Shown: positions 1 through 40,302 of the stretch, one piece after another
Layout of the letters: each line of letters begins with the position of its first letter
How positions within the stretch are numbered: the first letter of the stretch is position 1
Origin: Macrostomum lignano
Taxonomy: Eukaryota
NCBI GenBank assembly: GCA_002269645.1
Contig: NIVC01001476.1
Span: 1 to 64,000 of the forward strand
Direction: 5' to 3'
DNA: 64,000 nucleotides
Position numbers and translations under genes: made by a program
Notes under the pieces: generated by a model
What the model was told of the DNA's origin: nothing
The model's database searches: none
The model's input: the letters and a program-made list of their open reading frames with translations, nothing else

Positions 1-3000
1 GCACCAGATCAAATCGATCTTTTGTACATGCAGCGCGAAAATGAAACACATTATATATACATACAAGATATTAGTTCTTTTTTAAGAGAAAATAGAAATA
101 GATATCCACTATGTAGAAATTGTTTTACATTTAAAAAAGGATGAAACAGCTCTTAAAACCACCAACGATTTTGTTTAGATCACAAATTTACTAATGCTAT
201 AATGCCAGCATCTGAAGATGCAACCCTAAGTTCAACAACATTATTGGCAGTTAAAAAACCAATAGTAATATATGCTGATTTTGAAGCAACAAATGTTCCC
301 TTAAAAGAATCACAGACGGTATCTGATGACGATCATGCAAAGCATGCGACCCTACGGGACGGTGAATGCACAAAAAAATTGGCACAACAGTTTCCGAATA
401 GTTATTGTATATATGTACACTCTGTAGCTGATCATATATTTAAATCAAGGATGATTACTTACCACGGTAATGATGCAGCTAAGCACATGGCAGAATCATT
501 AGTAAATGTATTTGAATATATTCAAAATCAATATGATAAATTATCAAAAAATATTAATATGACAAATAAGGATAGAGACAATTATAAAAATGCAACAAAT
601 TGTTTTATGTGCAAAAGACATTTAAGTAAGAATAATAAGATACGAGAACATTGTCATCTAACAGGAAATTATCGAGGGGCAGCATGTAGATCATGTAATG
701 CAAAAGAAGGAAAAGGATGTAAGGAAATACCAGTATTTTTTCATAATGGTTCCGGATATGATTTTCATTTCTTAGTTCGAGAATTGCTTCATTTAGGAAA
801 GGATGAATATGAAATAAATATATTACCTAAAACATCAGAAAATTACATATCAATAACATATGGTAAGAAATACTCCCATCTAGTTTTTCTAGATTCCTTG
901 AGATTCTTATCAACATCTTTAGCAAATGTTGTTTCATCATTAGTTCCAAAACCATGGGATTTAGAAATAGTAAAGAAAAACTTTCCAATCTTATTGAATC
1001 GTTTCAAAAAAGAAAAACTATCCGAGGAAGAACTAATGCTATTAACTCGTAAGGGCATCTACCCATATGAATATGTAACATCTGAAGACGTATTTTTTCA
1101 TACCGAATTACCCCCAATTGAAAAGTTTTATTCAACATTATCACAAACAAACATAAGTGAATCGGATTATGAACACGCTCAAAAAGTATGGAAATACTTT
1201 AATTGTAAAACATTTAAAGATTATCATAATCTATATCTTAAAGCAGATGTTCTCCTATTAGCTGATGCATTTGAAAACTTTAGGAATCATACATATGAGA
1301 ATTTTAAAATTGATCCCGCATATTGTTTCAGTGCACCGGGATTAACATGGGCTTGTGGTTTGAAACATACAGATGTTAAGATTGATTTACTAACTGATCA
1401 TGATATGTTGTTAATGATTGAGAGAGGAATTCGCGGCGGATTCTCGGGTGTACTAGGAGATAGATATACTAAAGTAAATAATAAATATCTTCCAAATTAT
1501 AATAAAAAAGAAAAATCATCATATGTATTATATCTAGATGCAAACAATTTATACGGTGGTTGTATGAAACAAAAATTACCAATAGCTGATTTCCAATGGG
1601 AAGATGACCCCGATTATTACAAAAATATTCCCGAAGGAAGGGGCTGTATCGTAGAAGTGGATTTGCAATATACTCGGGAAGCAAAAGCAAAAACATATAA
1701 ATATCCTTTAGCTCCAGAGCATTGTTCAGTTAATGAAGATGATTTATCACAAACACAAAAAGATTATCTTAAAGTAGATAATGCAAAACATCTAGCAACA
1801 AAAAAATTAATATTAAATTTACATGATAAGAAAAACTATGTAGTGCATTATAAGCTTCTACAATTTTATGAAAACAGGGATTAAAAGTGTCTAAAGTACA
1901 TCGAACAATATCGTTTATTGAGGAAGATTGGTTAGCTAAATATATTGACTTTAATTCAAATCAGAGACAGATGTCAAAAACAAATTTTGAGAAAGATTAT
2001 TGGAAATTAATGAATAATGCTTTTTATGGAAAAACGGTTGAAAATATTAGAGATAGAACCCAATTCCATTTAGAAAAGGATATTGATAAAGCAAAGAAAT
2101 ATTTCTCAAAACCTAACTTTAAAGACTTTATAAAATTTGATGATAACTTTATGGGTATTCATATGAGAAATAAAACAACAAAATTTCTTAAACCAATATT
2201 TATTGGAATGGTTGTTTTAGATTTGCAAAGCTAGTAATGTATGAATACTATTATGATGTTATAAATAAAACATGGCCAGATAACTATCCAATATATGCAG
2301 ACACCGACAGTTTGGTATTTAAGGTTGAAACAGAGGATCGGGCAAAGCCGCGAACCAAAGGTTCGATGTCTATAAAGATATGGAAAAAATTAAGGATACA
2401 CTGGATACCTCCGACTATCCGGATAACCATCCTTTAAAATCAGATCAAAATAAAAAAGTTGTACTTAAAATGAAAGATGAATTAAATAGCAAAATCATAA
2501 CCGAGTTTATAGCAATAAGATCAAAATGCTATGCATTTAAGTTTTAGGACAGGAGGGAGAGGTAAAAAAAATAAAAGGGGTATCAAGGCAGCAGTAAAAA
2601 AGATAACATTTGATGATTATAAAAACGTACTTTTAGATTACCTTAATACAATTGAAAATTATCATGCTCCACAATATCGATTAAATTCAGATAAGCATCA
2701 GATGTTTGTCATCGAGACAGATAAAAAAACATTAAGTCCATTTGATGATAAAAGATATTTAGATGATAAAATTAAAACATATCCATATGGTTTAAAAGAA
2801 GAGATAAAAAATATGATAAAAGATAAAAAACAAAAAGAAGATATAATAAGTAAATATAATGAATACAAAGCGGCAATAAATAATTATTATTACGATTGTG
2901 ATTGTGAATCCGAATGTGATTGTGAATATAATACATTTCTAGAATATGAAAAAGATATAGATAATTATTATTCAACATTTCCAAAAGAACTTAAAAAATT

Positions 3001-3073
3001 AAATAAGGAAAAAGTCTTGAATAACTGGAAGAGATTAACAGAAAAATTACTTATCGGGTCTGTAAAAAACTAA
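1..3073 (+). CDS. polB: Protein-primed family B DNA polymerase (pPolB), 5'-truncated by the window and split by single-base indels
   Basis: Exo motifs YADFE, FHNGSGYDFHF and YLKADVLLLAD; a CxxC...REHCHLTGNYRGAAC insert; Pol motifs YLDANNLYG, KLMNNAFYGK, YADTDS and DDKRY. The frame is continuous after 1-nt corrections near 138/157, 1878, 2226, 2348, 2546 and 2586. Confidence 0.96.
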
Positions 3074-3406
3074 AGCATGTAATTGTTTGAGCAAATCATT
3101 AACTTCAATTTCATATATTATTGAGCACCAATTATCCTCACAGTCGGCAGGGTAACTTAAACAATCCTTTATTTTTTTCCTAAGTTTTTTTATTTTTCTA
3201 ACCAATCTATCTATTTCAATTTCAATTACTATTTCAGCATAAACAATATCTTGTCTTAAAAAACGTTTTCTTTTATCTATCTCATATCGGATGGGAAACA
3301 TATCGTCCCCATACTCATGATATTTCTGAGATATAATTATATTTATTTTTTTATTAATATCATTAAGTTCACGCTCTTTAGTGATAAGGATTTTTATCGT
3401 ATCCAT
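3047..3406 (-). CDS. Polinton hypothetical protein, 119 aa, coiled-coil-like
   Basis: Clean ATG ORF overlapping its neighbours in the compact viral layout; no family recognised. Confidence 0.55.
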   Translation of the reverse strand: MDTIKILITKERELNDINKKINIIISQKYHEYGDDMFPIRYEIDKRKRFLRQDIVYAEIVIEIEIDRLVRKIKKLRKKIKDCLSYPADCEDNWCSIIYEIEVNDLLKQLHALVFYRPDK

Positions 3407-3753
3407 TTTCTTATAAAAAATTTAGTCTTCGTCGTCATCCTCCCAAACACCGCCAATTTTACAGTCCTATCACTCTTTTTATTATTTGTTTGTTTTAGTT
3501 TAAATTGCAATCCACCCTCGTTGCAGTATTTCATAACAAACGCTTTAGGTTTATTAATAACTAAAACAGGAAAATTTTTAACATCATCTCCGCTTAGACA
3601 TAAAATTTTTTGCCCATCTAATTGTAAAAATATTGATTGAAGCCCAATAAATTTAACCTGTCTCAAACATACAATATTATATTCTTTATTCTCCAACATA
3701 TTGGGTGTGAGATAATTAATCACATTAGAATCGGTTTTGAACCAGCTCTCCAT
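3394..3753 (-). CDS. Polinton hypothetical protein, 119 aa, beta-rich
   Basis: ATG preceded by TAAAA like the other element genes; no family recognised. Confidence 0.6.
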   Translation of the reverse strand: MESWFKTDSNVINYLTPNMLENKEYNIVCLRQVKFIGLQSIFLQLDGQKILCLSGDDVKNFPVLVINKPKAFVMKYCNEGGLQFKLKQTNNKKSDRTVKLAVFGRMTTKTKFFIRKWIR

Positions 3754-3779
3754 TTTTAATCTAAAAAAATAACAAAAAA

Positions 3780-4313
3780 ATGAAAGACATTTATGTTTGT
3801 AATAAATGTAATGTGACTATGCACAGAGGGCAAACAGCAAACGGAGATATATATCATATGTGTTATTCATGTTCTAAAATATATCAATTTGAAAAAACAA
3901 AAAAGATTGAAAACTCATATTACTATTTTAAAAACACAATTTTAAGAAATCTTACAAGAGACATTTCTGATCCAATTTTAATTCCCGGAAATAATGTTTA
4001 TTTATATAATAACTTTTTCCATTTAAATAAAGGAAAGGGATTAAGTTCGAAAGACTCTGAAAGGATTTTAATTTTAGTTGGATATTATTTCAATTTTCTT
4101 ATTCGAGAGAATACAAAGTTTATAAGGATAGGTAACATACCTAACGAAATGTTATTGAAAAAGTCATTGGAATTTTTATGTATTGATAAAAAATTTAAAC
4201 CTAGGATCAGAAGAGAGTTACCACTTTGGGAAGAATATATAACATATGCATTAGAAAAACTAAACAACCTGAAGTTCTACGCACTTCCTGACCGCGGCTT
4301 TGTGCCCCAGTAG
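3780..4313 (+). CDS. Zn-ribbon protein resembling poxvirus/NCLDV late transcription factor VLTF3 (A2-like)
   Basis: N-terminal CNKC-x17-CYSC. Downstream segments YFKNTILRNL, FLIRENT, LLKKSLE, KKFKP and LWEEYI resemble VLTF3 by eye. Confidence 0.6.
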   Translation: MKDIYVCNKCNVTMHRGQTANGDIYHMCYSCSKIYQFEKTKKIENSYYYFKNTILRNLTRDISDPILIPGNNVYLYNNFFHLNKGKGLSSKDSERILILVGYYFNFLIRENTKFIRIGNIPNEMLLKKSLEFLCIDKKFKPRIRRELPLWEEYITYALEKLNNLKFYALPDRGFVPQ

Positions 4314-4321
4314 CAATAGTT

Positions 4322-4768
4322 TCAGGTTCGTAAATCTAATGTTTCTATCGGTGGAGCTTTGGGTTTGTCCAAACGCAATTCTTTTAATTCCATATCGGTA
4401 AAAGTTTCAACATCTAAAATTCTATTTCTATCTTTTAAATATTTTTCATATAATTCAACCGCGGTTGATAATTCATGAATCGTTATCTCTCCGTCATCCA
4501 ATATTTTTTGCACATATAAATATAATTGATTTTTATATTGTTTTGCAACATCTCTTAATGATTTATATTTTTCCTTTCTTTTTTTAAGATATAATTTAAT
4601 TGCTAAAAGTATTGATAAGTTCCTGATCAATTCAAAACCTGATATTGACCCAATTGAAATACCTAAAAATAATTGAGATAAATTAAGAGTTGGAATAGAT
4701 TGTAAAATACCTAAAACGATTACACATAACATTGATAAGCTTCCAAATCCAATATTGAAAAAATCCAT
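4322..4768 (-). CDS. Predicted membrane protein (two N-terminal hydrophobic segments, charged tail)
   Basis: 148-aa ORF; hydrophobic residues ~5-58 are followed by KLYLKKRKEK. Confidence 0.6.
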   Translation of the reverse strand: MDFFNIGFGSLSMLCVIVLGILQSIPTLNLSQLFLGISIGSISGFELIRNLSILLAIKLYLKKRKEKYKSLRDVAKQYKNQLYLYVQKILDDGEITIHELSTAVELYEKYLKDRNRILDVETFTDMELKELRLDKPKAPPIETLDLRT

Positions 4769-4897
4769 ATTTCTTATATGGTTTGAAACTCTTCTTACTT
4801 TTTTAGTATATAAATCATAATCATAGTTATACGATCAACATTACTTAACATCTGACCTTTACGTTGGTTGAACCGGTCGCGTTCCCATTTATCTGCT

Positions 4898-5224
4898 TCA
4901 GATACCGACATTCTCGTCTATTTTTAATAGCACCAAAATGAATTCCCCACGCTCTTTGGGGATTTGTCCCGAGCTCAATAGGTATTGTATTGGAGTTATT
5001 CTTTCTTTTTTCTCCCATTTAAATCCTATTTTCCAAAACTCTTGAAGTATAATATGATTTTTTAATAACTTAATTAATTCTTGAAGTTTCTTATTATCCT
5101 GAACATTTACAGTACTAAATAAAAATTTGGTATGAGATTTGAATGTTTTTATATTTGATTCTTGTTTAGGAATAGGAATAATAACATTATTTTGCCGCAT
5201 CGATGGAGTTCTACTAAAAGCCAT
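4898..5224 (-). CDS. Polinton hypothetical protein, 108 aa
   Basis: ATG in TATAAAATG context; compact position after the fibre gene. Confidence 0.55.
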   Translation of the reverse strand: MAFSRTPSMRQNNVIIPIPKQESNIKTFKSHTKFLFSTVNVQDNKKLQELIKLLKNHIILQEFWKIGFKWEKKERITPIQYLLSSGQIPKERGEFILVLLKIDENVGI

Positions 5225-5267
5225 TTTATATATAAATATTTATGTATCGGTCGCAGCATTAGCTGAT

Positions 5268-7310
5268 TTAAGTTATTTCGGTTTGTGGCCGTTCCAAATA
5301 TGCGGTCGCAGCAAAATCATATCCTGCTGATGTGCTACCACAAACGGCTGCACCACGAATAAAATGTGCAGCATCCGATCCTCCAGTTCGAGCACCAAAA
5401 CCCATAAGAGATCCCGTTTTATCTAAAGTTCCCCAAGTTCCACTATCATATGTAAAAAAGTTTTGCCCAATTAGCGTATATGTATTAGCTGATACATTGT
5501 ATGTGCTTATTTGATACCAAACTCTTTGATTTAAAATATTAATTTCAAAAAGATGCCAATCGCCGTTATCAATATTAGCATAGGTTATAGTTTGATCTGC
5601 GTCATTAAGAACATCATTACGAACTGTTGCTCCGTCTGATTTTATATTGCTCCAAACAACCCCAACTCTATCATGCCATTCACTCGCAAACACAATCAAG
5701 CCGGCGCGGGTTGTTAACCCGGATCCAAATTCACTTGTTGGACGTTCGTGACAATATGCATAAAACCAAACAGCGTCAGCTCCATCTCCTGTAGCATTAG
5801 CAACTCGGAAATAGAAGGAGGCGGAGATATTACGAAAATGGGTGAAATTAAATTGCAACGCTCCAGACTGACCACTTGCTTCATCAGTAATTCTACTCCA
5901 TTTTGATAATCAATATAAGTAGCGCTACCAACAAAACTTCCAGTTGGAAAAATATCACCGGCTGTGGTTGGGTTTTGATATCCAGTCCAATTGCAAATTA
6001 CAGGCTCGTACAAAGCGGCATCGATTGCAGGTATTCCATCCAATTTTATTTTATCGTTAAAAGACATTCGGCCATCCGCCGTTTGTGTTACTCGCGTATC
6101 AACATAACCTTTAGTAACAACAGAACTGTTATTGTTTATAGTAGAGATATTAGTAATTGTATTACCTCCCATATCAATTGATTGATTAACCACTCCCAAA
6201 TTTAAATCAAGAATTGTAAACGTCTGTCTATAAATCTGGAAGGTTGACAGACCCGGGTTGGTTGAACCCGAAGTTGATGTAAGACAGAACAATCTGAAAT
6301 ATGAATATGTTTTATCAAAATTTTGTGTGACATTAATTGTTTGAGTTGAGTTATTTATTGCTACAGAACTATCCGCAGGTATTAATACGTCCCAACTTGT
6401 ATTGTCATTACTTCCCTCAAATCGCCATGATGCTGGGTGCTCGGTTGAAGGTGATGGCCTACCACGTAAATCAATTTTATAACACATTATTGCGGAAGGG
6501 CATTGGACTTGAATCCAATAATCGGTTTGAGTATTATTTGTTGCCCAATCTGTTGAATCATTTCCATCAAACGCTTTCCAACTTGCAAAATCAGTTGTAT
6601 TAAATGCAGTGCTTGCGGTTATTGCAAAACCATTTCCACTCCAATCTGCCATGGTAGGTATGTGACCAGTTTCAACCGTTTGGAATCGATCCTGCTTTAA
6701 GGCTCCACCCCAACTAAATTATCAACCTCCGTTTTGGTATAGGAATCAGTTATATCTCTTTTTAAATTTAAGGAATTATCAACTTCAGTTTTGCTATAAG
6801 AATCAGTTATATCTCTTTTTAAATTTAGGGAATTATCAACTTCAGTTTTGCTATAAGAATCAGTTATATCTCTTTTTAAATTTAGGGAATTATCAACTTC
6901 AGTTTTGGTATAGGAATCAGTTATATCTCTTTTTAAATTTAGGGAATTATCAACTTCAGTTTTGGTATAAGAATCGGCCGTATTGCGTTTTAAATTTAAT
7001 GAATCATCTATTTGAGTTCGAGAATAAGAATCAGTTATATCTCTTTTTAAATTTAACCCATTGTCAACTCTGTTTTTGTATATGAATCGGCTACGTTCCG
7101 TTTTAAATTTAGGGAATTATCTATTTGAGTTTTGGTATAGGAATCTGCAACATTTCTTTTTAAATTTAGTTTAGTATCAACTTCACTTTTTTTATAACCT
7201 TCATCTTCATTAATATATCGGTTATCTCCGAATGTAACACTTATTCCACCAGAAGTACCACCACCAGTACTTGATGTTCCGTTCCATGAGGGTGTTCCAG
7301 AAAATAACAT
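5268..7310 (-). CDS. Fibre/receptor-binding-like protein: 19-aa repeats, F5/8 type C (discoidin) domain and L-type lectin-like domain; frameshifted
   Basis: One frame after 1-nt fixes near 7066, 6710 and 5890. Repeats KRDITDSYSKTEVDNSLNL; discoidin-like AWKAFDG...WIQVQ...WRFEGSND; lectin-like ELTDEASGQSGAL, SASFYF..GADAVWF and MGFGARTGG. Confidence 0.75.
6725..7170 (-). repeat. 57-nt coding tandem repeat (~7-8 units) in the fibre gene
   Basis: aacttcagtt recurs at 6781 and 6838 (period 57 nt = 19 aa). Confidence 0.95.
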
Positions 7311-7393
7311 TTTTTACTGTCTATTTTATAGAGTCTAAAAAATCAACGCATGCTTTGCATGATCATCTTAAATACTTCGGGTTTACACGAGCT

Positions 7394-7780
7394 TCATTCG
7401 AAAGTCGATATAAAAAATACAACGCGCTTGCCGCAATAACTTTTATCAAATGTTTGAAATTGTTCGTGATAATCTCCACATAAACGATTTTTAGTATGAT
7501 TAAATTTATCTTTTATTTCCTGTAACGGAGGAAGCGCGTATGAATCAAAAAAATAAACAAGTTTTGGTTTTGAATAAACTGCTGACCAATGAACACCATT
7601 TTCTTTTGTTGTTTCAATATTAACAATGAAAGATCCATATTGTGGTAAGTCTTTTATCTCATCTCGCATAACACATCTGAATGGTTTTATTTTTAACTGC
7701 CGCGCCCAATTTGTTAATTCGATATTGCTTGTTGTGTCTGTTCCATATCTTTGTTTAAAATCATCCCACGTCATGGTCAT
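7394..7780 (-). CDS. Adenain-like cysteine protease (Polinton PRO); C-terminus probably frameshifted and extending to ~7325
   Basis: Catalytic pattern GVHW, FFDSY, QFQ and YCG. Confidence 0.9.
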   Translation of the reverse strand: MTMTWDDFKQRYGTDTTSNIELTNWARQLKIKPFRCVMRDEIKDLPQYGSFIVNIETTKENGVHWSAVYSKPKLVYFFDSYALPPLQEIKDKFNHTKNRLCGDYHEQFQTFDKSYCGKRVVFFISTFE

Positions 7781-7781
7781 T

Positions 7782-7964
7782 TTATGTTCCTGAAAAACTC
7801 TTGGTTTTAGTTAGTTTCGTAGGTGTGGGTTTTAACAATTCCTTTCTTATTTTATCAGCTTGTAACTGCCTTAATTTTGCTAGTTCTAGTTCGTAATTAT
7901 CTTCAGCTTTTTTAACTTTTTCTGATTGTTTTTTTAGTAAATTATTATTATTATTATTACCCAT
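7782..7964 (-). CDS. Small basic coiled-coil protein (~60 aa, MGNNNN...)
   Basis: ATG at 7964 in TAAAAATG context; its TAA stop abuts the protease ATG. Confidence 0.55.
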   Translation of the reverse strand: MGNNNNNNLLKKQSEKVKKAEDNYELELAKLRQLQADKIRKELLKPTPTKLTKTKSFSGT

Positions 7965-8008
7965 TTTTACTATAGGAAACGGACAAAGTCCTCGAACCAA
8001 AGGTTCTA

Positions 8009-8791
8009 TTAAACCTGTTTTATACGTAAAATTACTGTTATTGATTGCCCACCAAAACTTATTAATCTATCGCTTTCATCTACAATCCTAATATAAATTG
8101 ATTGAACATTATATTGATTTAATGGGTAATATATTGGGGTTTGAGGTGAACAATCATTTTCTCTCCAATTGGAACAGCAAGAAATGGGATTGAATAAATA
8201 ATTCCACGTTGAACCAAAACTCCATTATTATCTGTTATATAACCACCGTTTGATATGTCGGTTGTTATATTAATTGTATTAACTCCACCCTCAATATTTC
8301 CACTGTATCTCCGGTGCTTGATGTGGTAACTATTCGGGAATTAAATCCAAGTATGGTTCTGAGTGAATTTGCAATTGTGAAATCAACCTGATATCCGGAT
8401 CCTAGTGATAGTGTGAATCTGCCAGATGGTAAATCAACCCTATAACAATCGCGCCTGCTACCCAATCGCCGTTAGATGTTAATTCTCCTTCTATATAAGC
8501 ATTCAAATCAGTATAGCTATACGCTCCTGGGTTAACGCTAAATGTTGTCCAATTGGCTCCGGAATCTTTAGAATATCTAAATTGATTATTTGTTGCATTA
8601 ATTAATTGAGGCATGTTAAAAACCGAAAATAGTATCAAACCTATTTGATAACTTAGGCTTTGATCAAGTTGTAATGGATCGCGCAATTGAATCCGTTGCT
8701 CGCTGGTTGTCATTATAAACTGTAATGTTGTACTAAATTTTGAATTAGTTCGATCTACCAATTGTTTTATAGTATCTAAATTTGTAGCCAT
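8009..8791 (-). CDS. Minor capsid (penton, single jelly-roll) protein; frameshifted
   Basis: LINATNNQFRY, PGAYSYTDLN and LRTILGF, then C-terminal IYYPLNQYNVQSIYIRIVDESDRLISFGGQSITVILRIK. Joined by 3-4 single-base corrections; TAA at 8011-8009. Confidence 0.85.
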
Positions 8792-8869
8792 TTTTATAGT
8801 GGAAGAATCGGACGAAGTCCGCGTTCCGAAGGAACGATCGTACCGAAGGTACGCGACCCTATGGGGCGA

Positions 8870-9631
8870 TCATTCTTCTTCCTCATCGTCTTCTTTTATA
8901 AGATCTTTTAAGATTCGATTTTTCCTTTCTAACCTCGGATTGATATAAATATGTTTGTATTGGCTATCATCCCAAATTTTTTTACACATACTTTTAAATG
9001 GTTTTGTATCCAATCCAGGATTAAATCTAGCGTGTATATTTTGTAAATCATAATTATCTAAATCAAACATTACACAACAGCTAGCATTCTTTTTTATAAT
9101 CGATTCTAATTCTCTAAAGGATTGAGTAAGATAAAAAGCTCCAATTCCATCTCCTCTACCACTAACAAAAATTTCCTTTTGTAATTCTTGATCACCGTCA
9201 TTAATACAATCATCAAAAATAATTAGTGTTTTATCATTTTTTGGAATTTGATCATAGCCTAATCGGGTTGATACTCTAACAGTTGGGGCTCGTTCGGTAA
9301 TGTTTTCGGGGTGTTGTGCCATTGTTTTACATAAATCCTCAATGTCTGCTAGATTAAATCGCGGTTCGTCATCATCCTCATATTGCTCATATGCTCTTAA
9401 CATTCTAAACAATACATCTTTTTTTAATTTGTTTTTTAATCCATGTTTAAGAAATTCATAATATTTTATTCTAGGTTTGTTAGTATAAATTATTATATTA
9501 TTATAGTCTAACATTCCATCTGTTGTTAATAAATCGTAAACAAAGTGTGTTTTTCCTTTACCTGATCCTCCGATTACTAAACAAAGAAAAGGATCATTTG
9601 GAAATATCTTATCGTGTTTTGCCTTTACCAT
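8870..9631 (-). CDS. A32/FtsK-family genome packaging ATPase
   Basis: Walker A GGSGKGKT, Walker B LIIFDD, and the GRG...YLTQS motif. Confidence 0.93.
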   Translation of the reverse strand: MVKAKHDKIFPNDPFLCLVIGGSGKGKTHFVYDLLTTDGMLDYNNIIIYTNKPRIKYYEFLKHGLKNKLKKDVLFRMLRAYEQYEDDDEPRFNLADIEDLCKTMAQHPENITERAPTVRVSTRLGYDQIPKNDKTLIIFDDCINDGDQELQKEIFVSGRGDGIGAFYLTQSFRELESIIKKNASCCVMFDLDNYDLQNIHARFNPGLDTKPFKSMCKKIWDDSQYKHIYINPRLERKNRILKDLIKEDDEEEE

Positions 9632-9682
9632 TTTTAAAGAAATAATTTAAATAGGCGCGATGGTCGGAGACCTGCACTCATT

Positions 9683-11153
9683 TTACAATGGTGCGTCCCG
9701 AACAATCGTGCCATCAGCTTTAGCAATTGACATATATTCCTCTAGAAACAATACGTGGGCGTCAAGTGCCTGATTACCGGTTTTATTAATCTCTAACATA
9801 TAATTAAGTCCAATATTGGCTACGTTTTCTTTCTGTGCCGTTAGATCATAAACAACCACTGGATGAATGTTTAGAAACTCTGTGGGTGTGTACTGAGGGA
9901 CGGCATACGCTTCATTTTTAGCATAATCTTGATAATATTTTATAAAATCATTAACATTATTATTTGCAATATTTAGATTAAGAGGATCTTTAACCGGATA
10001 ATATTGATCATCAACCTGCAGGCGGATATTCTGAACATTAAACTCGTTAATAGCTGCAGCCGCATTGTCTGTTGCGGTGGCTGCTTGTTCTGCTATGGCA
10101 CCGGATTGAAGCCAATATAAATCCCCATTTGCTCTTTTACTCCTTCTATTTGTTATTTTAAACCAAACAAAAATATATCTCACCCGACGTTTTGATGTCA
10201 GTATTTGCCACTGGAATGAATCCTGGTTATTATTAATGGTTCGCATAAAATGTCGACGATTCAAATAAAATATTTCCTGATCATGCGTTAACTGATTATC
10301 GATGTGTTTTAAAAGTGGGGCTGTTACCTCAATAGTTGGTACGACTAATTGAATTGAATCTATACGAACTGCTATATCGGTTGAAATTGAGGTTCCATAA
10401 AGTATCCTAGGCTGATATCCACCAGATATTTGCAACTGTATCCCAAATTTTAATCCTTTCCATACCCGATTTGGTGAGAAGAACCCAAATAGCGGAAGAT
10501 TGAAAAGTCCTGCTCATATGCTGTTGCTGTGGTTAAAACCGCGACTGGGAATTTTTCTGACGATCTATAAAACCAGTATTAATATCTTTTGTATTAGTCA
10601 TAGTGGTTACAACTGGAACTATGTTTGTATTAAGGTAAACAATTAGCGCTGCAGTATCTGCACCGGCTGCGTTTTGTACATTAGGGAAAACTACTGCTTG
10701 ACCGTTACCTTTATCCGGCATCCACCCAACATTATCACCAACTTGTTTTGATAAATAAGTATAATTTAAATGTTTCAAAACTCCATTAATCTCTGCGGGG
10801 TTTGATGATGTCTCAACCTCAGCACCATTAACAGTTAGTTGAGCTTGGGAAAAACATTTATAAAACCAATCATTTTCTATTATTATTCCGGATCGATCTG
10901 CGATATCTCCGGCTGCAAGAGCAGTTCCATCATTTCTAGTATACAACCATCTAACGCGGAAAAACGCATTTTTCATATCCAATATAGTGTTGGTTGCGCC
11001 GATGTCAAAAGTTACCGTTCCAGTAGTAAAGTTATTTGAATTATCACTTGTTGGTAGGGTATAATTTAAATCTCTTGCTCTGACCTCATTAATATACTGT
11101 CGGTGCTTTTTGAAATGAAATTTATCACTCCACATAGTTTTTGTTTCAGCCAT
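9683..11153 (-). CDS. Major capsid protein (double jelly-roll), split by two indels near 10490-10545
   Basis: FSQAQLTVNGAEVE, LPLFGFF...GLKFGIQL, NIRLQVDDQYYP and HPVVVYDLT motifs typical of Polinton MCP; ~490 aa when joined. Confidence 0.88.
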
Positions 11154-11187
11154 TTTTTTAAGTTAAAAAAGTTTTTTATGTTAAAAA

Positions 11188-11859
11188 ATGAGTCAATTTA
11201 TGGACGTTGATGGAGAGTTAGCGATTTATAAAGAGAAGCAAAGATATTCTGATTTTGTTAGAAATTTACAAAAAAGAAAGTTAGGAATACAATTAGCTGG
11301 TGAAAGATTTGCTGCTCCTTTTGTTAATCCTATTACTGGGAAAATTAGTGAACTAGAAAAAACAGATAAAGATCTTCTGGAAAAAATTGCTAAAAATACT
11401 GAGCCAAAAGAGGATGAAATTTTGGATGAGCCGCCTGCTTATGAGACTGATCAAGCAATATTTAGAGTTGCAGAAATTAGACGTGAAGAGATTAGGGGTG
11501 GAGTTGAACAATATCCGAGACCTGCACCAACTAGTATTGCTGTTACAGATTTAGGTAATAATAATTATCGAATTGGTGGAGTTGATAAAAATCGGAATGA
11601 ACTATATACAGAATTGGGTGGAGCATATAATATTGTTATGAACCCTAGGGTAAAGTTTAACCCTGATTTATATACTAGGGATGAATTAATAAGTGCTAGA
11701 ATTTTTTATGATGAGTTAGGAGGAGCTGTTAAAAATACCAGCTTGTATAAATGGATTGTTAATTCTATAAATAACAAACCAGCTGTTGGTGATGGATTTA
11801 AAACACCGCGAAAACTTGTTTTAGCTGCTGCGAAAGCTGCTGGACATACTGGAGTTTAA
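11188..11859 (+). CDS. Polinton hypothetical protein, 223 aa
   Basis: Clean ORF; N-terminal LQKRKLGIQ...PITGKI resembles a recurrent Polinton accessory ORF. Confidence 0.7.
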   Translation: MSQFMDVDGELAIYKEKQRYSDFVRNLQKRKLGIQLAGERFAAPFVNPITGKISELEKTDKDLLEKIAKNTEPKEDEILDEPPAYETDQAIFRVAEIRREEIRGGVEQYPRPAPTSIAVTDLGNNNYRIGGVDKNRNELYTELGGAYNIVMNPRVKFNPDLYTRDELISARIFYDELGGAVKNTSLYKWIVNSINNKPAVGDGFKTPRKLVLAAAKAAGHTGV

Positions 11860-11886
11860 TTAATTGTTAAATTTATTTTTTATAAA

Positions 11887-12504
11887 ATGGATGAAACAAA
11901 AATTTGTAATAAATGTAAAGAAGAGAAAATTTTGGATTATTTTAGATTTCGTAGAGATCAAAATAGATATTATAGTATTTGCAAACCTTGTGAGAGAAAG
12001 TATGATAAAGAATGGTATGAGAAAAATCGTGAATATAAGCTTCAATGGAAAAAAGAATATGATAAAAATAATATAGAAAGGCGCAGAAAATATCAAAATG
12101 AAAGAAGATTAACTGATGAAAATTACAAACTTATTTTAAACACACGAAATAGAATATATTCTCTTCTAAAATCTAATAATGCTCGAAAAAATAATCATAC
12201 TGTTGATTACCTTGGTTGCTCAATTGAATTCTTTACTGATTGGTTAAATTTCACAAAACATTATTATGTGCCAAAAGATTATATTGGTGTTTTGCATGTT
12301 GACCATTTTATTCCTGCTTCATCTTTTGATTATCGCGATGAAGAACAAATTAAAAAGTCTGAAAATTGGAGAAATAAAAGATACTTAGTTGCTGTAGATA
12401 ATATTTCAAAAAATGATAAACAACCAACCATAGAAGAATTTGCAAAACAATTGGTGCTTTCATGTATTTTTAAGGCTATTAAAAATGAGCCAAATAGTGT
12501 TTGA
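11887..12504 (+). CDS. Free-standing HNH-type endonuclease with N-terminal Zn finger
   Basis: CNKC...CKPC; helical LNTRNRIYSLLK..YLGCS; HVDHFIPASSFD...NWRN...DNISKND (HNH fold as in NCLDV/phage homing endonucleases). Confidence 0.85.
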   Translation: MDETKICNKCKEEKILDYFRFRRDQNRYYSICKPCERKYDKEWYEKNREYKLQWKKEYDKNNIERRRKYQNERRLTDENYKLILNTRNRIYSLLKSNNARKNNHTVDYLGCSIEFFTDWLNFTKHYYVPKDYIGVLHVDHFIPASSFDYRDEEQIKKSENWRNKRYLVAVDNISKNDKQPTIEEFAKQLVLSCIFKAIKNEPNSV

Positions 12505-14087
12505 AGGAGGATTGTTAGATGTTCAAAAAGGATTAACAAGCTTACCACCAATCTTTACTACTGGAAGGTATACAAATGAATTACACATCCCATCTTACAA
12601 CTTCGCGGGTGGAGCTCGAGCTGTGCCCGAGTGGTAGATGCAAAGCTACTGCTAGTCACTATTAGTGGCAACACCAGCCGCTCACTCAATCCCCTAAAGC
12701 TTCAAGTACCACTTTGTTTTCGAAAGATTACAAAGGAACAGAGGTAACTCCTCTTCCCAACGGTAACAAGCTTGAAGATAAATATATGGGCAAGAGTGAA
12801 TCGAAAACCTAACCTCATATGACTTGAGTATGGTTGAGATGCAACGACTGTACGCTGGTGGGCTTGAAGGACTTAGTCAATCCTTATGATAGCTTAAGAC
12901 ACAGTCTACTCCTTTGTGAAAGCAAAGGTATAAAGGCCGGGTTGACTCGACTCGATCTCCGATTAAATCCTGATAATACTCCAAAAGCCGATTCAATTCC
13001 CATTAACGGTATTGATTGGTTAGCATACTATCATGACTTAGCATACAGAGATGCTGATAAGAACTCACCCGAGGAAGCATTAAGATTAAAACATGAAGCC
13101 GATCAAAAAATGATTCAAGGATTAGATAACTTGCAGGGATTATCAGTAGGTCAGAGATTAACTAGGTGGATGGTTAAAAAGATTTTGCAGTCTAAAGTTA
13201 AATTTGGTTTGGGAATTAATTATAATCAACATGGAAATAATTGTGTTGAGTGTTTACTATTAAGTGGCAGTGGGTTAAGTTCTGATGAGGCAAAGATTCT
13301 TCATAAAGAATATCGAAAACCTAAATTTTATAGAAAAATCATGAACTTCAAAAAGAATGAAATTTGGTATGCTGATTTAATGTCGATGCCGAAAGATCTG
13401 GGATATAAATATATCTTAACCATATTAGATGGTTTTACTCGATACGCGTGGGCTGTTCCTTTAAAATCCAAAAAGGGAGAGGAGGTTGCTGCTGCTTTTA
13501 GAAGTCTTGGAGAAAAAAGCGAACGTTTGTGTGTTGACGAAGGAAAAGAATTTTACAATCCTCATATGTATAAATTATATCATTTTGAAAAAGGACAAGA
13601 AAGGAAAAAAGACGCGAATGGGGAGTATATTAATAAAATTTATTCTATTTATGGAGAGAGTAAAAACGCATTAATAGAAAGATTTAATAGAACTTTAGGT
13701 AAGAAATTATGGTTTCAGTTTAGTCTTAATGGTAACCAAAAATGGGTAAAAATATTACCAGACGTAGTGAAAGATTATAACAATTCATATCATTCGGCGA
13801 TAAAGATGACTCCTCAACAAGCTTATAACAATCCTGAAAACGTTAAAGTTACTTTTGGAAAATTTGAAAAAAATAAAAAGAAATCTTTTAAGGTTGGTGA
13901 TTCTGTTTATATCTATAAATGGAAAGATAAGTTTGAAAAAGGAAGAAAAGGATATTGGAAGATAAGTGAGAAATTTACTATCAGTAAAGTTTTAAATACC
14001 AATCCTACAACCTATATAATTGCTGATAAGGACGGTGAAGAAATATTGGGTTCGTTTTATGAGAACCAACTAATATCAGCGAACTAA
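12485..14087 (+). CDS. Parvovirus-type phospholipase A2 domain fused to rve (DDE) integrase; interrupted by a group I intron (exon 1 12485-12610, exon 2 ~12936-14087)
   Basis: Exon 1 ends ELHIPSYNFAG. Exon 2 continues xGLTRLDLRL..PINGID..YYHDLAY..EAD (PLA2), then LHKEYRK, WYADL, VDEGKEF, IERFNRTL, YNNSYHSAIKMTP and FKVGD (integrase). Confidence 0.9.
12611..12936 (+). ncRNA. Group I self-splicing intron (IC1/IE-like core, ORF-less); 3' splice G at 12935 or 12936
   Basis: P1 cgggU/Gcccg with U.G at 12610/12625; P3 12672-78/12854-60; P4 12682-87/12794-99; P5abc; P6a/b; P7 a[c]gactgt/acagtct; J8/7 UAAGAC; P8; P9 with GAAA loop. Confidence 0.92.
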
Positions 14088-14097
14088 GTTCGAACAA

Positions 14098-14322
14098 TTA
14101 CTTGAGACAACATGGTAGTAAATTTTTTATAACAAACAAAAACAATATTATTACTATAATTGTTACTAATATTATTATTGACATTTGTTCAACTGTTATC
14201 AAACTTAAATTTTCATTAAGTTCATTAATCGGCACATTTCCGATGTAGGAATAGTTTACCTTCATTTTTTTATATATATTTTTCACAATAAATGTCGTTT
14301 CTGTTATAGAATAATAGTTCAT
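14098..14322 (-). CDS. Small single-pass membrane protein, 74 aa
   Basis: TAAAAAATG start; hydrophobic IIILVTIIVIILFLFVI near the C-terminus. Confidence 0.55.
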   Translation of the reverse strand: MNYYSITETTFIVKNIYKKMKVNYSYIGNVPINELNENLSLITVEQMSIIILVTIIVIILFLFVIKNLLPCCLK

Positions 14323-14338
14323 TTTTTAAATATTTTTT

Positions 14339-14653
14339 TCACATAAAAATTTCACTTTCATTCTCTGAATCACTGGTTTCATATGAACTATTTGTTGATT
14401 CGGAATCTGTTGATCTAACCTCCCAATCATCCGAATTTAAATAATCTCCAAGTTGAAATATTAACTCACCCTCTTGTTCTAAATCATACATCTCATCTAG
14501 CTCTAATGGATAAAGTTTTAGGTCGTGCTTGTCGTCATATTTTAAATAAACTTCATCAATTATTCCATTCAAAATATGTTGTTTTATTATCTCTGCATTT
14601 TTAGCAACAGTCTCAAAAGTATCACTAACAGAAAAGGTGTAAACTCGGGTCAT
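14339..14653 (-). CDS. Acidic hypothetical protein, 104 aa
   Basis: TAAAAATG start; D/E/S-rich tail. Confidence 0.6.
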   Translation of the reverse strand: MTRVYTFSVSDTFETVAKNAEIIKQHILNGIIDEVYLKYDDKHDLKLYPLELDEMYDLEQEGELIFQLGDYLNSDDWEVRSTDSESTNSSYETSDSENESEIFM

Positions 14654-14707
14654 TTTTAGTAACAGAAAAAGACCCTTCGCGCCTGCGGCGCGGGCAAGGG
14701 GTTATAG

Positions 14708-14978
14708 AGTAGTAGTATAGAAAAAGACGCTTCTAGATCAGACCTTATTTTAATGGCCGTTTGTAAGGTCTTAAGAGGGGGGACGCGAGGGGGGTGTTAG
14801 GGAGTGTTTGGAAGTGTTGGGAAGTGATTTTTATTGTTAGGGGTGATTATGGGTGATTAGATGTGTTAAGGGTGTTTAGATGTGTTTTTTTATTTACCCC
14901 CCGTGTCCCCCCTCTAGACCCTTAAAACGGTCATTAAAAAAGTGCTCTGGGTCTAGAAGCGTCTTTTTATATACTACT
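14708..14978. repeat. Right terminal region of the Polinton: ~85-bp imperfect inverted arms (14711-14796 / 14896-14978)
   Basis: AGTAGTATAGAAAAAGACGCTTCTAGA... at 14711 matches the reverse complement of ...TCTAGAAGCGTCTTTTTATATACTACT ending at 14978. Confidence 0.9.
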
Positions 14979-39456: not shown

Positions 39457-40302
39457 CAAGGACCACTAGAAGAAGGACGGGACACTTCGTTTCTTGGAAA
39501 ATTTATTAAAGGCTGATTTTCACTGAAAAATGCACTACCGAGATAGGAACTTTTCACTTTTTTCACTTTAAAATGGTGATAGCTTTTTATTGGAAGCAGA
39601 TACAAAGCTCTTTTTTTGATATAACTTACAAAACATGTTGCTTCAATGGATTTTATAAAGATTTTTTTACAATCAATTGATCTTCATATTCTTTTATTTT
39701 AGTTACTAGCTATATCATGCAGCAATTATAGTTTAAAGCTAACTAGTGACTAACTTGAATTTTACAATATCTTTTTAATTGAATGCATCTATTTATTAGC
39801 AATATATCATTAAAAACAGTTGGCTATAATTATATGCCCAATTCACTGCTTATTCATTTAAGTTTTATACTTATCATATAAAATAAGTATTTAATTATGT
39901 AGCTATACCTTAGCTATACTAGCTATGCATATAATTATAGCCAACTGTTTTTAATGATATATTGCTAATAAATAGATGCATTTAATTAAAAAGATATTGT
40001 AAAATTCAAGTTAGTCACTAGTTAGCTTTAAACTATAATTGCTACACGATATAGCTAGTAACTAAAAGAATATGAAGATCAATTAATTGTAAAAAATCTT
40101 TATAAAATCCATTGAAGCAACATGTTTTGTAAGTTATATCAAAAGAAGAGCTTTGTATCTGCTTCCAATAAAAAGCTATCACCATTTTAAAGTAAAAAGT
40201 TAAAAGTTCCTATCTCACTAGTGCATTTTTCAGTGAAAATCAGCCTTTAATAAATTTTCCAAGAAACGAAGTGTCCCATCCTTCTTCTTCTAGTGGTCCT
40301 TG
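39457..40302. mobile_element. Foldback element: ~380-bp inverted arms, ~90-bp spacer, 8-bp TSD
   Basis: Arms 39457-39837 and 39927-40302 are near-perfect reverse complements, start with CAAGG and are flanked by caaaatca on both sides. Confidence 0.9.

Follow-up and report, generated by a model that had tools for sequence, protein, structure and literature searches.

Genes and features of the locus

We analysed a 64,000-nt window of Macrostomum lignano DNA. Approximately positions 1–14,978 of the window make up the right-hand portion of a Polinton-like element, as judged from the ORFs, the Pfam matches and a terminus (Table 1). The gene complement agrees with that of Polintons and adintoviruses, with a polymerase, an rve integrase, a packaging ATPase, a jelly-roll capsid protein and one terminus in view. 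The only Pfam match of the polymerase gene is an Endonuclease_7 domain (E 2e-7). The AGT-type motif at the right end is presumably a mark of the Polinton terminus, and the GC content increases past 15 kb. An ORF with an F5/8 type C domain (5714–7310; Pfam E 5e-12) lies beside a 57-nt tandem repeat and is probably a fibre gene in pieces. In the host DNA, a long, near-perfect inverted repeat was found at 39468–40288.

Table 1. Features of the Polinton-like element and helices of its predicted intron, in window coordinates.
Feature	Position	Strand	Remarks
Polymerase	202..3073		Several ORFs; identified by eye from ORF 202–1884 and subsequent pieces
Packaging ATPase			Pox_A32 match, E 1e-7 (Pfam)
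Jelly-roll domain (DJR-like)			E 0.0014 (Pfam)
rve integrase fused to PLA2 domain			rve E 1e-6 (Pfam)
Polinton gene, function unassigned, 223 aa	11188..11859	+	Conserved; bounds the nuclease slot on the left
Free-standing HNH/endonuclease VII-like nuclease, 205 aa	11887..12504	+	Intact ORF
PLA2-integrase exon 1, 42 codons	12485..12610	+	Last base is the U of the P1 U-G pair
Predicted group I intron, variant B, ORF-less	12611..12944	+	3′ end 12936 (sister-intron alignment) or 12944 (frame, P9.0, P10)
P1	12606–12610/12625–12629
P3	12672–12678/12854–12860
P4	12682–12687/12794–12799
P7	12846–12850/12902–12906
P9	12911–12917/12922–12928
PLA2-integrase exon 2	12945..14087	+	Remaining PLA2 domain fused to rve integrase; first in-frame ATG 13110
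Polinton right terminus (probable)	14700..14978	.	Ends with AGT-type repeat on minus strand

Related elements are present on many contigs of the assembly (loci are numbered L below). A contaminant of non-animal origin was ruled out as their source, since Wnt genes share contigs C952, C506 and C67 with these elements. The Wnt matches frequently appear as 2–4 copies of near-equal similarity; the assembly therefore contains duplicates, and copy counts exceed the number of independent events.

The HNH nuclease

The nuclease gene lies in a slot between two conserved Polinton genes. The gene on its left, which had no match in a Pfam search, precedes both types of slot nuclease (see below) in most loci of the window's family (family 1). 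The original prediction described an intact HNH gene overlapping the PLA2 start by 20 nt, close upstream of the intron. All of this was borne out: the ORF is uninterrupted, it runs 20 nt past the PLA2 ATG (12485), and 106 nt separate its end from the 5′ splice site.

The encoded protein consists of an N-terminal Cys4 zinc ribbon, long helices and a beta-beta-alpha core (D139, H140, N163, N172), which in the predicted structure (pLDDT 95.8) is made of strands 136–140 and 164–168 and helix 169–175. Across 84 aligned sequences (the query and 83 of the 150 matches listed), H140, N163, N172 and K175 were invariant, and D139 and the two CxxC motifs were kept in at least 90%. By motif and modelled core, the slot protein is a beta-beta-alpha-Me nuclease. 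A Pfam search of the ORF gave no HNH family match, and the PHROG search matched endonuclease VII (E 1.7e-11). Fold searches were suggestive at most: Foldseek with the structural model returned nothing at E 0.001, its weak top rows being the Cas9 HNH domain and ScoMcrA; the best VIA match (Z 6.2) was to an unrelated protein, and Hpy99I reached Z 4.2 over residues 1–41. The zinc ribbon is also similar to Hpy99I at E 0.0045.

The family is very large, with 15,606 matches to the window protein, and is common in phages, where its members are annotated as endonuclease VII. A metagenome scan recovered 26 distant relatives, and no intron was found around the nine of them that were searched. A word-index search gave only three relatives, all weak. 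The HNH genes of the slot fall into at least seven subtypes at 85% identity, with the greatest divergence in the N-terminal part.

The PLA2-integrase gene and its group I intron

The PLA2 domain is matched poorly in the window (PF08398, E 0.015), whereas uninterrupted sister alleles score above the cut-off (E 3e-8 to 4e-9). These intron-less alleles fix the insertion point exactly after 12610. On its sequence and predicted fold, the insert that begins there is a group I intron. P1 contains a U-G pair at the 5′ splice site and an internal guide, and P3, P4, P7 (with the G-binding pair) and P9 can all be formed. Two intron variants, A and B (the window's), occupy this site in family 1, and a third is found in a second Polinton family (family 2). 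The commonest strands pair fully in 98 of 109 variant A introns parsed, 17 of 24 variant B introns and 17 of 26 family-2 introns, and compensatory changes between the three keep P3, P4 and P7 paired. The fold has a z-score of −3.2 and was equalled in 0 of 100 shuffles. An Rfam scan of 16 kb gave no RF00028 match; the insert was matched only in a narrower scan, at 31.8 bits (E 1.9e-6), and did not reach the gathering score of 50. A family-2 intron (L147) scored 85 bits with the same model, and a variant A intron (L066) gave no match. An A-rich bulge motif at 12762 is taken by us as a sign of the IC1 type. The intron holds no ORF above 50 aa, as had been predicted, and the HNH gene adjoins it in the manner of a collaborative homing pair.

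The intron was earlier placed to end at 12936, and alignment with sister introns likewise makes G12936 the final intron base. That end conflicts with the reading frame: exon 2 read from 12937 hits a stop after two codons, and the same junction occurs in the variant B copies compared. A sequencing error at 12937–12944 was rejected as the cause of the frame problem because it recurs across variant B copies. The in-frame candidates are G12935, G12941 and G12944. Variant B has two extra bases (12943–12944) relative to the sister alleles. Among the four starts tried, guide pairing was strongest for G12944 (−10.8 kcal/mol, vs. −7.2 for 12937 and −9.8 for 12936), and P9.0 is possible with G12944 by eye; an end at this base drops the conserved Pro-Gly codons of the PLA2 calcium loop. 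We lean towards 12944 over 12936 as the probable 3′ end. A second splicing round at the look-alike site 12938–12942 is conceivable. The variant B guide is complementary to exon bases after the intron, which has the appearance of a 3′ splice-site shift.

Variant A introns end with A instead of G in 80 of 109 copies (e.g., L042 and L066, on G000:C374 and C2858); their P7 retains the G-binding pair and shows compensatory changes despite the terminal A. The family-2 introns end with G in 24 of 26 copies. Group I introns with a terminal A exist elsewhere; the available portions of the literature that we consulted held no precedent for them. When the window intron (12611–12936) was compared with that of L042, P2, P2.1 and the P5 extension were nearly letter-for-letter common to variants B and A, and the P3/P4/P6/P7 core of variant B was wholly re-coded. 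By this comparison, variant B is a chimeric ribozyme. The intron of L020 (G000:C249) is broken by an insertion of ∼830 nt. Optional 30-nt double-hairpin inserts, with the second hairpin in common, occur at several unrelated positions, among them the L066 intron, the PLA2 start region of ∼20 loci and other places in family-1 loci; presumably they are akin to the mobile double-hairpin elements of fungal mitochondria.

Contigs from seven sequencing runs, guessed to be RNA, were searched with one variant B and one variant A locus. No exact intron-removal joint was found, a result that is uninformative on splicing or expression, and the sole contig joint across the window intron has the letters of the genomic intron-less L036 allele. 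The 55 exon-2 codons that precede its first ATG match the integrase in conservation (pN/pS 0.08–0.09, vs. 0.07–0.09 for exon 2). This is indirect evidence for splicing in the intron lineage; variant B may owe the conservation to shared history.

Slot occupants and intron variants in family 1

Of 504 candidates from the exon-2 search, 150 were scored, and 120 of 122 additional matches were taken in. We classified 136 family-1 loci; L030 (exon 2 absent) and L138 (contig end) were excluded. The slot holds the HNH gene at 97 loci (96 genes and one fragment) and, at 37 loci, an unrelated gene for a 167-aa Eco47II-like PD-(D/E)XK nuclease (PF09553, E 4e-4 and 4e-6), a match to a restriction-enzyme family; a phage match for this second nuclease was sought and none was found. 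Both genes together occur at 0 loci, and the two loci with neither lack the upstream part. Variant A of the intron is present at 109 loci, variant B at 24, and three loci have no intron. The combinations are HNH/A (77), PD-(D/E)XK/A (30), HNH/B (17, including the fragment), PD-(D/E)XK/B (7), HNH/no intron (3) and no nuclease/A (2). Full flanks are available for 124 loci, which group into 76 clusters showing the same combinations, so the copies are not independent. All intron-less loci retain HNH (three, or two after collapsing).

The HNH gene and the intron had been expected to occur together. The counts do not show this: 94 loci have HNH and an intron, 37 have an intron with the other nuclease and three have HNH without an intron (Fisher p 0.56). 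Slot type and intron variant are likewise independent (p 1.0). Some slot nuclease is nevertheless found at 131 of 133 intron loci, the remaining two being those without the upstream part. The unit is thus a nuclease slot with interchangeable occupants, rather than an HNH-intron pair. The splice position carries C, not T, in L036 and in the intron-less family-2 loci L139–L150. This C would abolish the U-G pair, and such alleles may be refractory to the intron.

Intron-encoded relatives of both nucleases

The integrase of family 2 is 59% identical to that of family 1, and its gene carries an intron at the same PLA2 insertion point. We inspected the 26 family-2 loci that were the best nuclease matches (26 of 112). 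The PD-(D/E)XK ORF lies downstream of the intron 5′ end in 26 of 26, and upstream of exon 2 in all 25 loci where exon 2 was found. In L147 the ORF runs for 228 codons into the ribozyme core; by eye, it occupies a loop closed by a 12-bp stem, and its product is 66% identical to that of the free-standing family-1 gene. Uninterrupted full-length family-2 matches number at least ∼17 among the matches listed. Neither nuclease was found in up to 2.3 kb upstream of nine uninterrupted family-2 loci.

Outside this genome, the best of the 15,606 matches to the HNH protein (P0005; 43% identity, E 2e-36) has a C-terminal tail that matches the translated intron core, at E 1e-12 for variant A and 5e-10 for the window intron. 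It was the single positive among 153 proteins covered by this test; its cluster has seven members, on contigs of 5–42 kb. A tail of the same kind was found in five of nine outside PD-(D/E)XK homologues (best E 2e-14 to 2e-7), and in a sixth by eye. P0005 and the outside PD-(D/E)XK homologues with such a tail are likely intron-encoded, with the intron location and the host gene read from the protein tails. Judged by sequence, both slot nucleases come from families also resident in this intron lineage. Relatives of P0005 or of exon 2 were sought in viral contigs and none was found; five viral-contig matches to the intron pattern were dismissed as chance, since none had an Rfam match.

Some further family-2 and related copies were observed. 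A nuclease inside the long intron of L224 (G000:C1464) was ruled out; a minisatellite of roughly 480 nt is present instead. The family-2 exon-1 copies of L212–L218, L220 and L223 all give way to unrelated sequence at one shared codon; a second exon 1 and intron start lie close by in some of them, and they are possibly deletion derivatives. L225–L228 belong to a third lineage of decayed and more divergent intron-less PLA2 copies.

Exchange, diversity and selection

Five locus pairs were compared, three of them being the closest differing pairs. L061 and L064 differ in the slot only, L013 and L055 in the intron only, and L016 and L044 in both, with flanks mostly 92–100% identical. The HNH gene and the intron have thus been exchanged between copies independently as well as jointly, and the slot gene behaves as a free-standing homing endonuclease gene does, being optional between conserved genes and mobile relative to its flanks. 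On flank trees, slot type changes 18–21 times (shuffled mean 30–31) and intron variant 14–18 times (shuffled mean 21). Among 34 windows along the region, synonymous diversity peaks in the two beside the insertion site (0.28 and 0.26, vs. a median of ∼0.12). Linkage is low along the whole region, so that ordinary recombination is able to produce mosaics; correlation with the intron variant (r2 up to 1.0) is confined to the bases beside the insertion site. Slot-type linkage is highest, though weak, over the final 21 nt of exon 1 (mean r2 0.15, vs. 0.05 beside the slot).

The ORF is intact in 66 of 96 HNH and 27 of 37 PD-(D/E)XK copies, with the catalytic motif present in 62 and 26 of these; the other 30 and 10 copies fall below the intact-length cut-off. 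The dN/dS values, at 0.19–0.54 for HNH and 0.15–0.37 for PD-(D/E)XK, are below 1 and indicate purifying selection on both nucleases.

Proposed homing and its alternatives

Collaborative homing has been documented in a few phages. We suggest that the slot nucleases likely promote their own spread and that of the intron through homing of the kind known from phages. The more specific reading, that they act as homing endonucleases of the free-standing type and target PLA2 close to the insertion site, the intron being co-converted and protective, we put at a probability of roughly 0.6. Two elements would share a nucleus as integrated, replicating or co-infecting copies, and the slot nuclease would break a sensitive PLA2 allele at or near the intron insertion site. 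Repair off the donor would transfer exon 1 together with the nuclease gene, and in many cases the intron as well; the intron would split the target and so shield its own allele (collaborative homing). Intron-less carriers would survive via variant target bases, and family 2 would represent the composite state, with the nuclease within the intron. Homing is supported because PD-(D/E)XK is found inside the family-2 intron and the outside relatives carry intron-core tails, because slot occupancy is exclusive (0/136 with both), with swaps on near-identical flanks and a diversity peak at the site, and because the nucleases are under purifying selection and uninterrupted family-2 loci have no upstream nuclease. 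Counted against it are the lack of correlation between HNH and the intron in family 1, with HNH at three loci without an intron; the scarcity of intron-less targets (133/136 loci are intron-plus) for nucleases that are yet conserved; and the low linkage throughout the region, together with a very large HNH family common in phages. Homing as originally proposed for HNH and intron thus receives strong indirect support from the intron-encoded relatives of both slot nucleases, and the pairing of HNH with the intron is the part that failed.

As the main alternative, the slot nucleases might home without the aid of the intron, cutting exon 1 or the slot of a competing allele regardless of it; the introns would then be unprotective passengers that once encoded a nuclease, since lost or relocated. 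Slot genes do swap with the intron staying identical (L061/L064, L001/L016), slot type is independent of intron variant, the nucleases have been conserved despite the rarity of intron-less targets, and the HNH subtypes differ mostly N-terminally; a turnover idea has been raised for phage loci in the available text of PMC10448857. We nevertheless regard this explanation as unlikely, as slot-type linkage has its peak, a weak signal, just before the insertion site and not beside the slot, and the intron-encoded form of PD-(D/E)XK suggests the insertion site as the target.

An intron-independent service to the element appears quite improbable. The nucleases would act in a restriction-like attack on co-infecting virus or host DNA, or in genome resolution or packaging, with mosaics arising from general recombination and the adjacency of the intron being coincidental. 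Recombination is indeed general across the region, PD-(D/E)XK matches a restriction-enzyme family, the phage relatives of HNH are annotated endonuclease VII, and packaging or restriction has been proposed for an HNH protein of a Polinton-like virus (PLV) in the available text of PMC12220804. However, family-2 elements without the intron have no such gene upstream, relatives of both nucleases are located in an intron loop typical of homing genes, and two unrelated folds substitute for each other at one position. Finally, nuclease and intron could be inactive relics, imported once and now carried passively by transposition. The shortened copies of both nucleases and the fragmented polymerase gene of the window fit such decay, which we consider very improbable given dN/dS values well under 1, compensatory changes that preserve P3, P4 and P7 in all three intron variants, and swaps between near-identical copies, which are recent.

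Comparison with known systems

Bonocora and Shub reportedly described in 2009 polymerase introns of T7-like phages with adjacent free-standing relatives. In these phages, members of one nuclease family occur both as free-standing genes next to the polymerase gene and within its intron, according to the available part of PMC3984707. The homing arrangement proposed here resembles theirs in that a single nuclease family is found in both states at the same site, and differs in that both states are within one animal genome, in two Polinton families, and that the shared nuclease is Eco47II-like PD-(D/E)XK. F-CphI and the psbA intron of S-PM2, a collaborative homing pair, belong to a phage (PMC6083498 and PMC3984707, in part), whereas the present locus lies in an animal-integrated Polinton. 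Here, the slot is filled by either of two unrelated nucleases, a single site hosts two intron variants and homing is proposed from sequence; the catalytic motif is D-H..N..N.

Protist PLVs have group I introns of 309–376 bp and free-standing HNH or GIY-YIG genes (PMC12220804). In the available sections of that paper, the introns are confined to a small number of protist groups and lie in a short gene that precedes the capsid gene, with no link to a nuclease reported; here the host is an animal, the gene is PLA2-integrase and nucleases are intron-encoded. A parvovirus-like PLA2 domain is known from animal Polintons as Adintovirus PLA2X (PMC8502044, in part) and is present here too, but as part of a fusion with the rve integrase and interrupted by a group I intron. 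Neither "homing" nor "endonuclease" appears in the main text of PMC8502044. In other literature that was available in part, collaborative homing has been invoked as an analogy for entomopoxvirus helicase-nuclease pairs; the comparison also included bioRxiv 10.1101/2023.08.22.554363 and PMC11296320. Animal group I introns are described mainly from the mitochondria of placozoans, anthozoans and sponges, with putative rDNA spacer introns in sharks (PMC8393795, in part). In the literature compared, in which subscription journals are thinly covered, animal Polintons were nowhere described as carrying group I introns together with homing nucleases; the tables of PLV ncRNAs in PMC12220804 might be relevant to this novelty. 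Homing by a free-standing nuclease and an intron is already known from phages, and its proposed occurrence in an animal-integrated element is likely the new aspect.

Taken at its widest, the homing reading would describe a live ecosystem among the Polintons of an animal nucleus. Self-splicing introns would gate integrase-PLA2 expression, some of them splicing at a displaced 3′ site or despite ending in A; two unrelated nucleases would compete for the introns and co-mobilise them; a new Eco47II-like homing family would exist outside and inside the same intron, and every stage of mobile-intron assembly would be present in one genome. We offer this wider picture tentatively and with some doubt. 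The genome holds more than 150 nuclear copies of group I introns in an animal, and one nuclease occurs in it both outside and inside the intron, alongside natural target alleles with and without the intron. With these forms coexisting, the proposed route from a free-standing nuclease to a mobile intron is directly testable in vitro. If true, the proposal would add an Eco47II-like family of homing endonucleases and natural ribozymes with a terminal A, and it would be evidence that Polinton copies meet and fight within animal cells.
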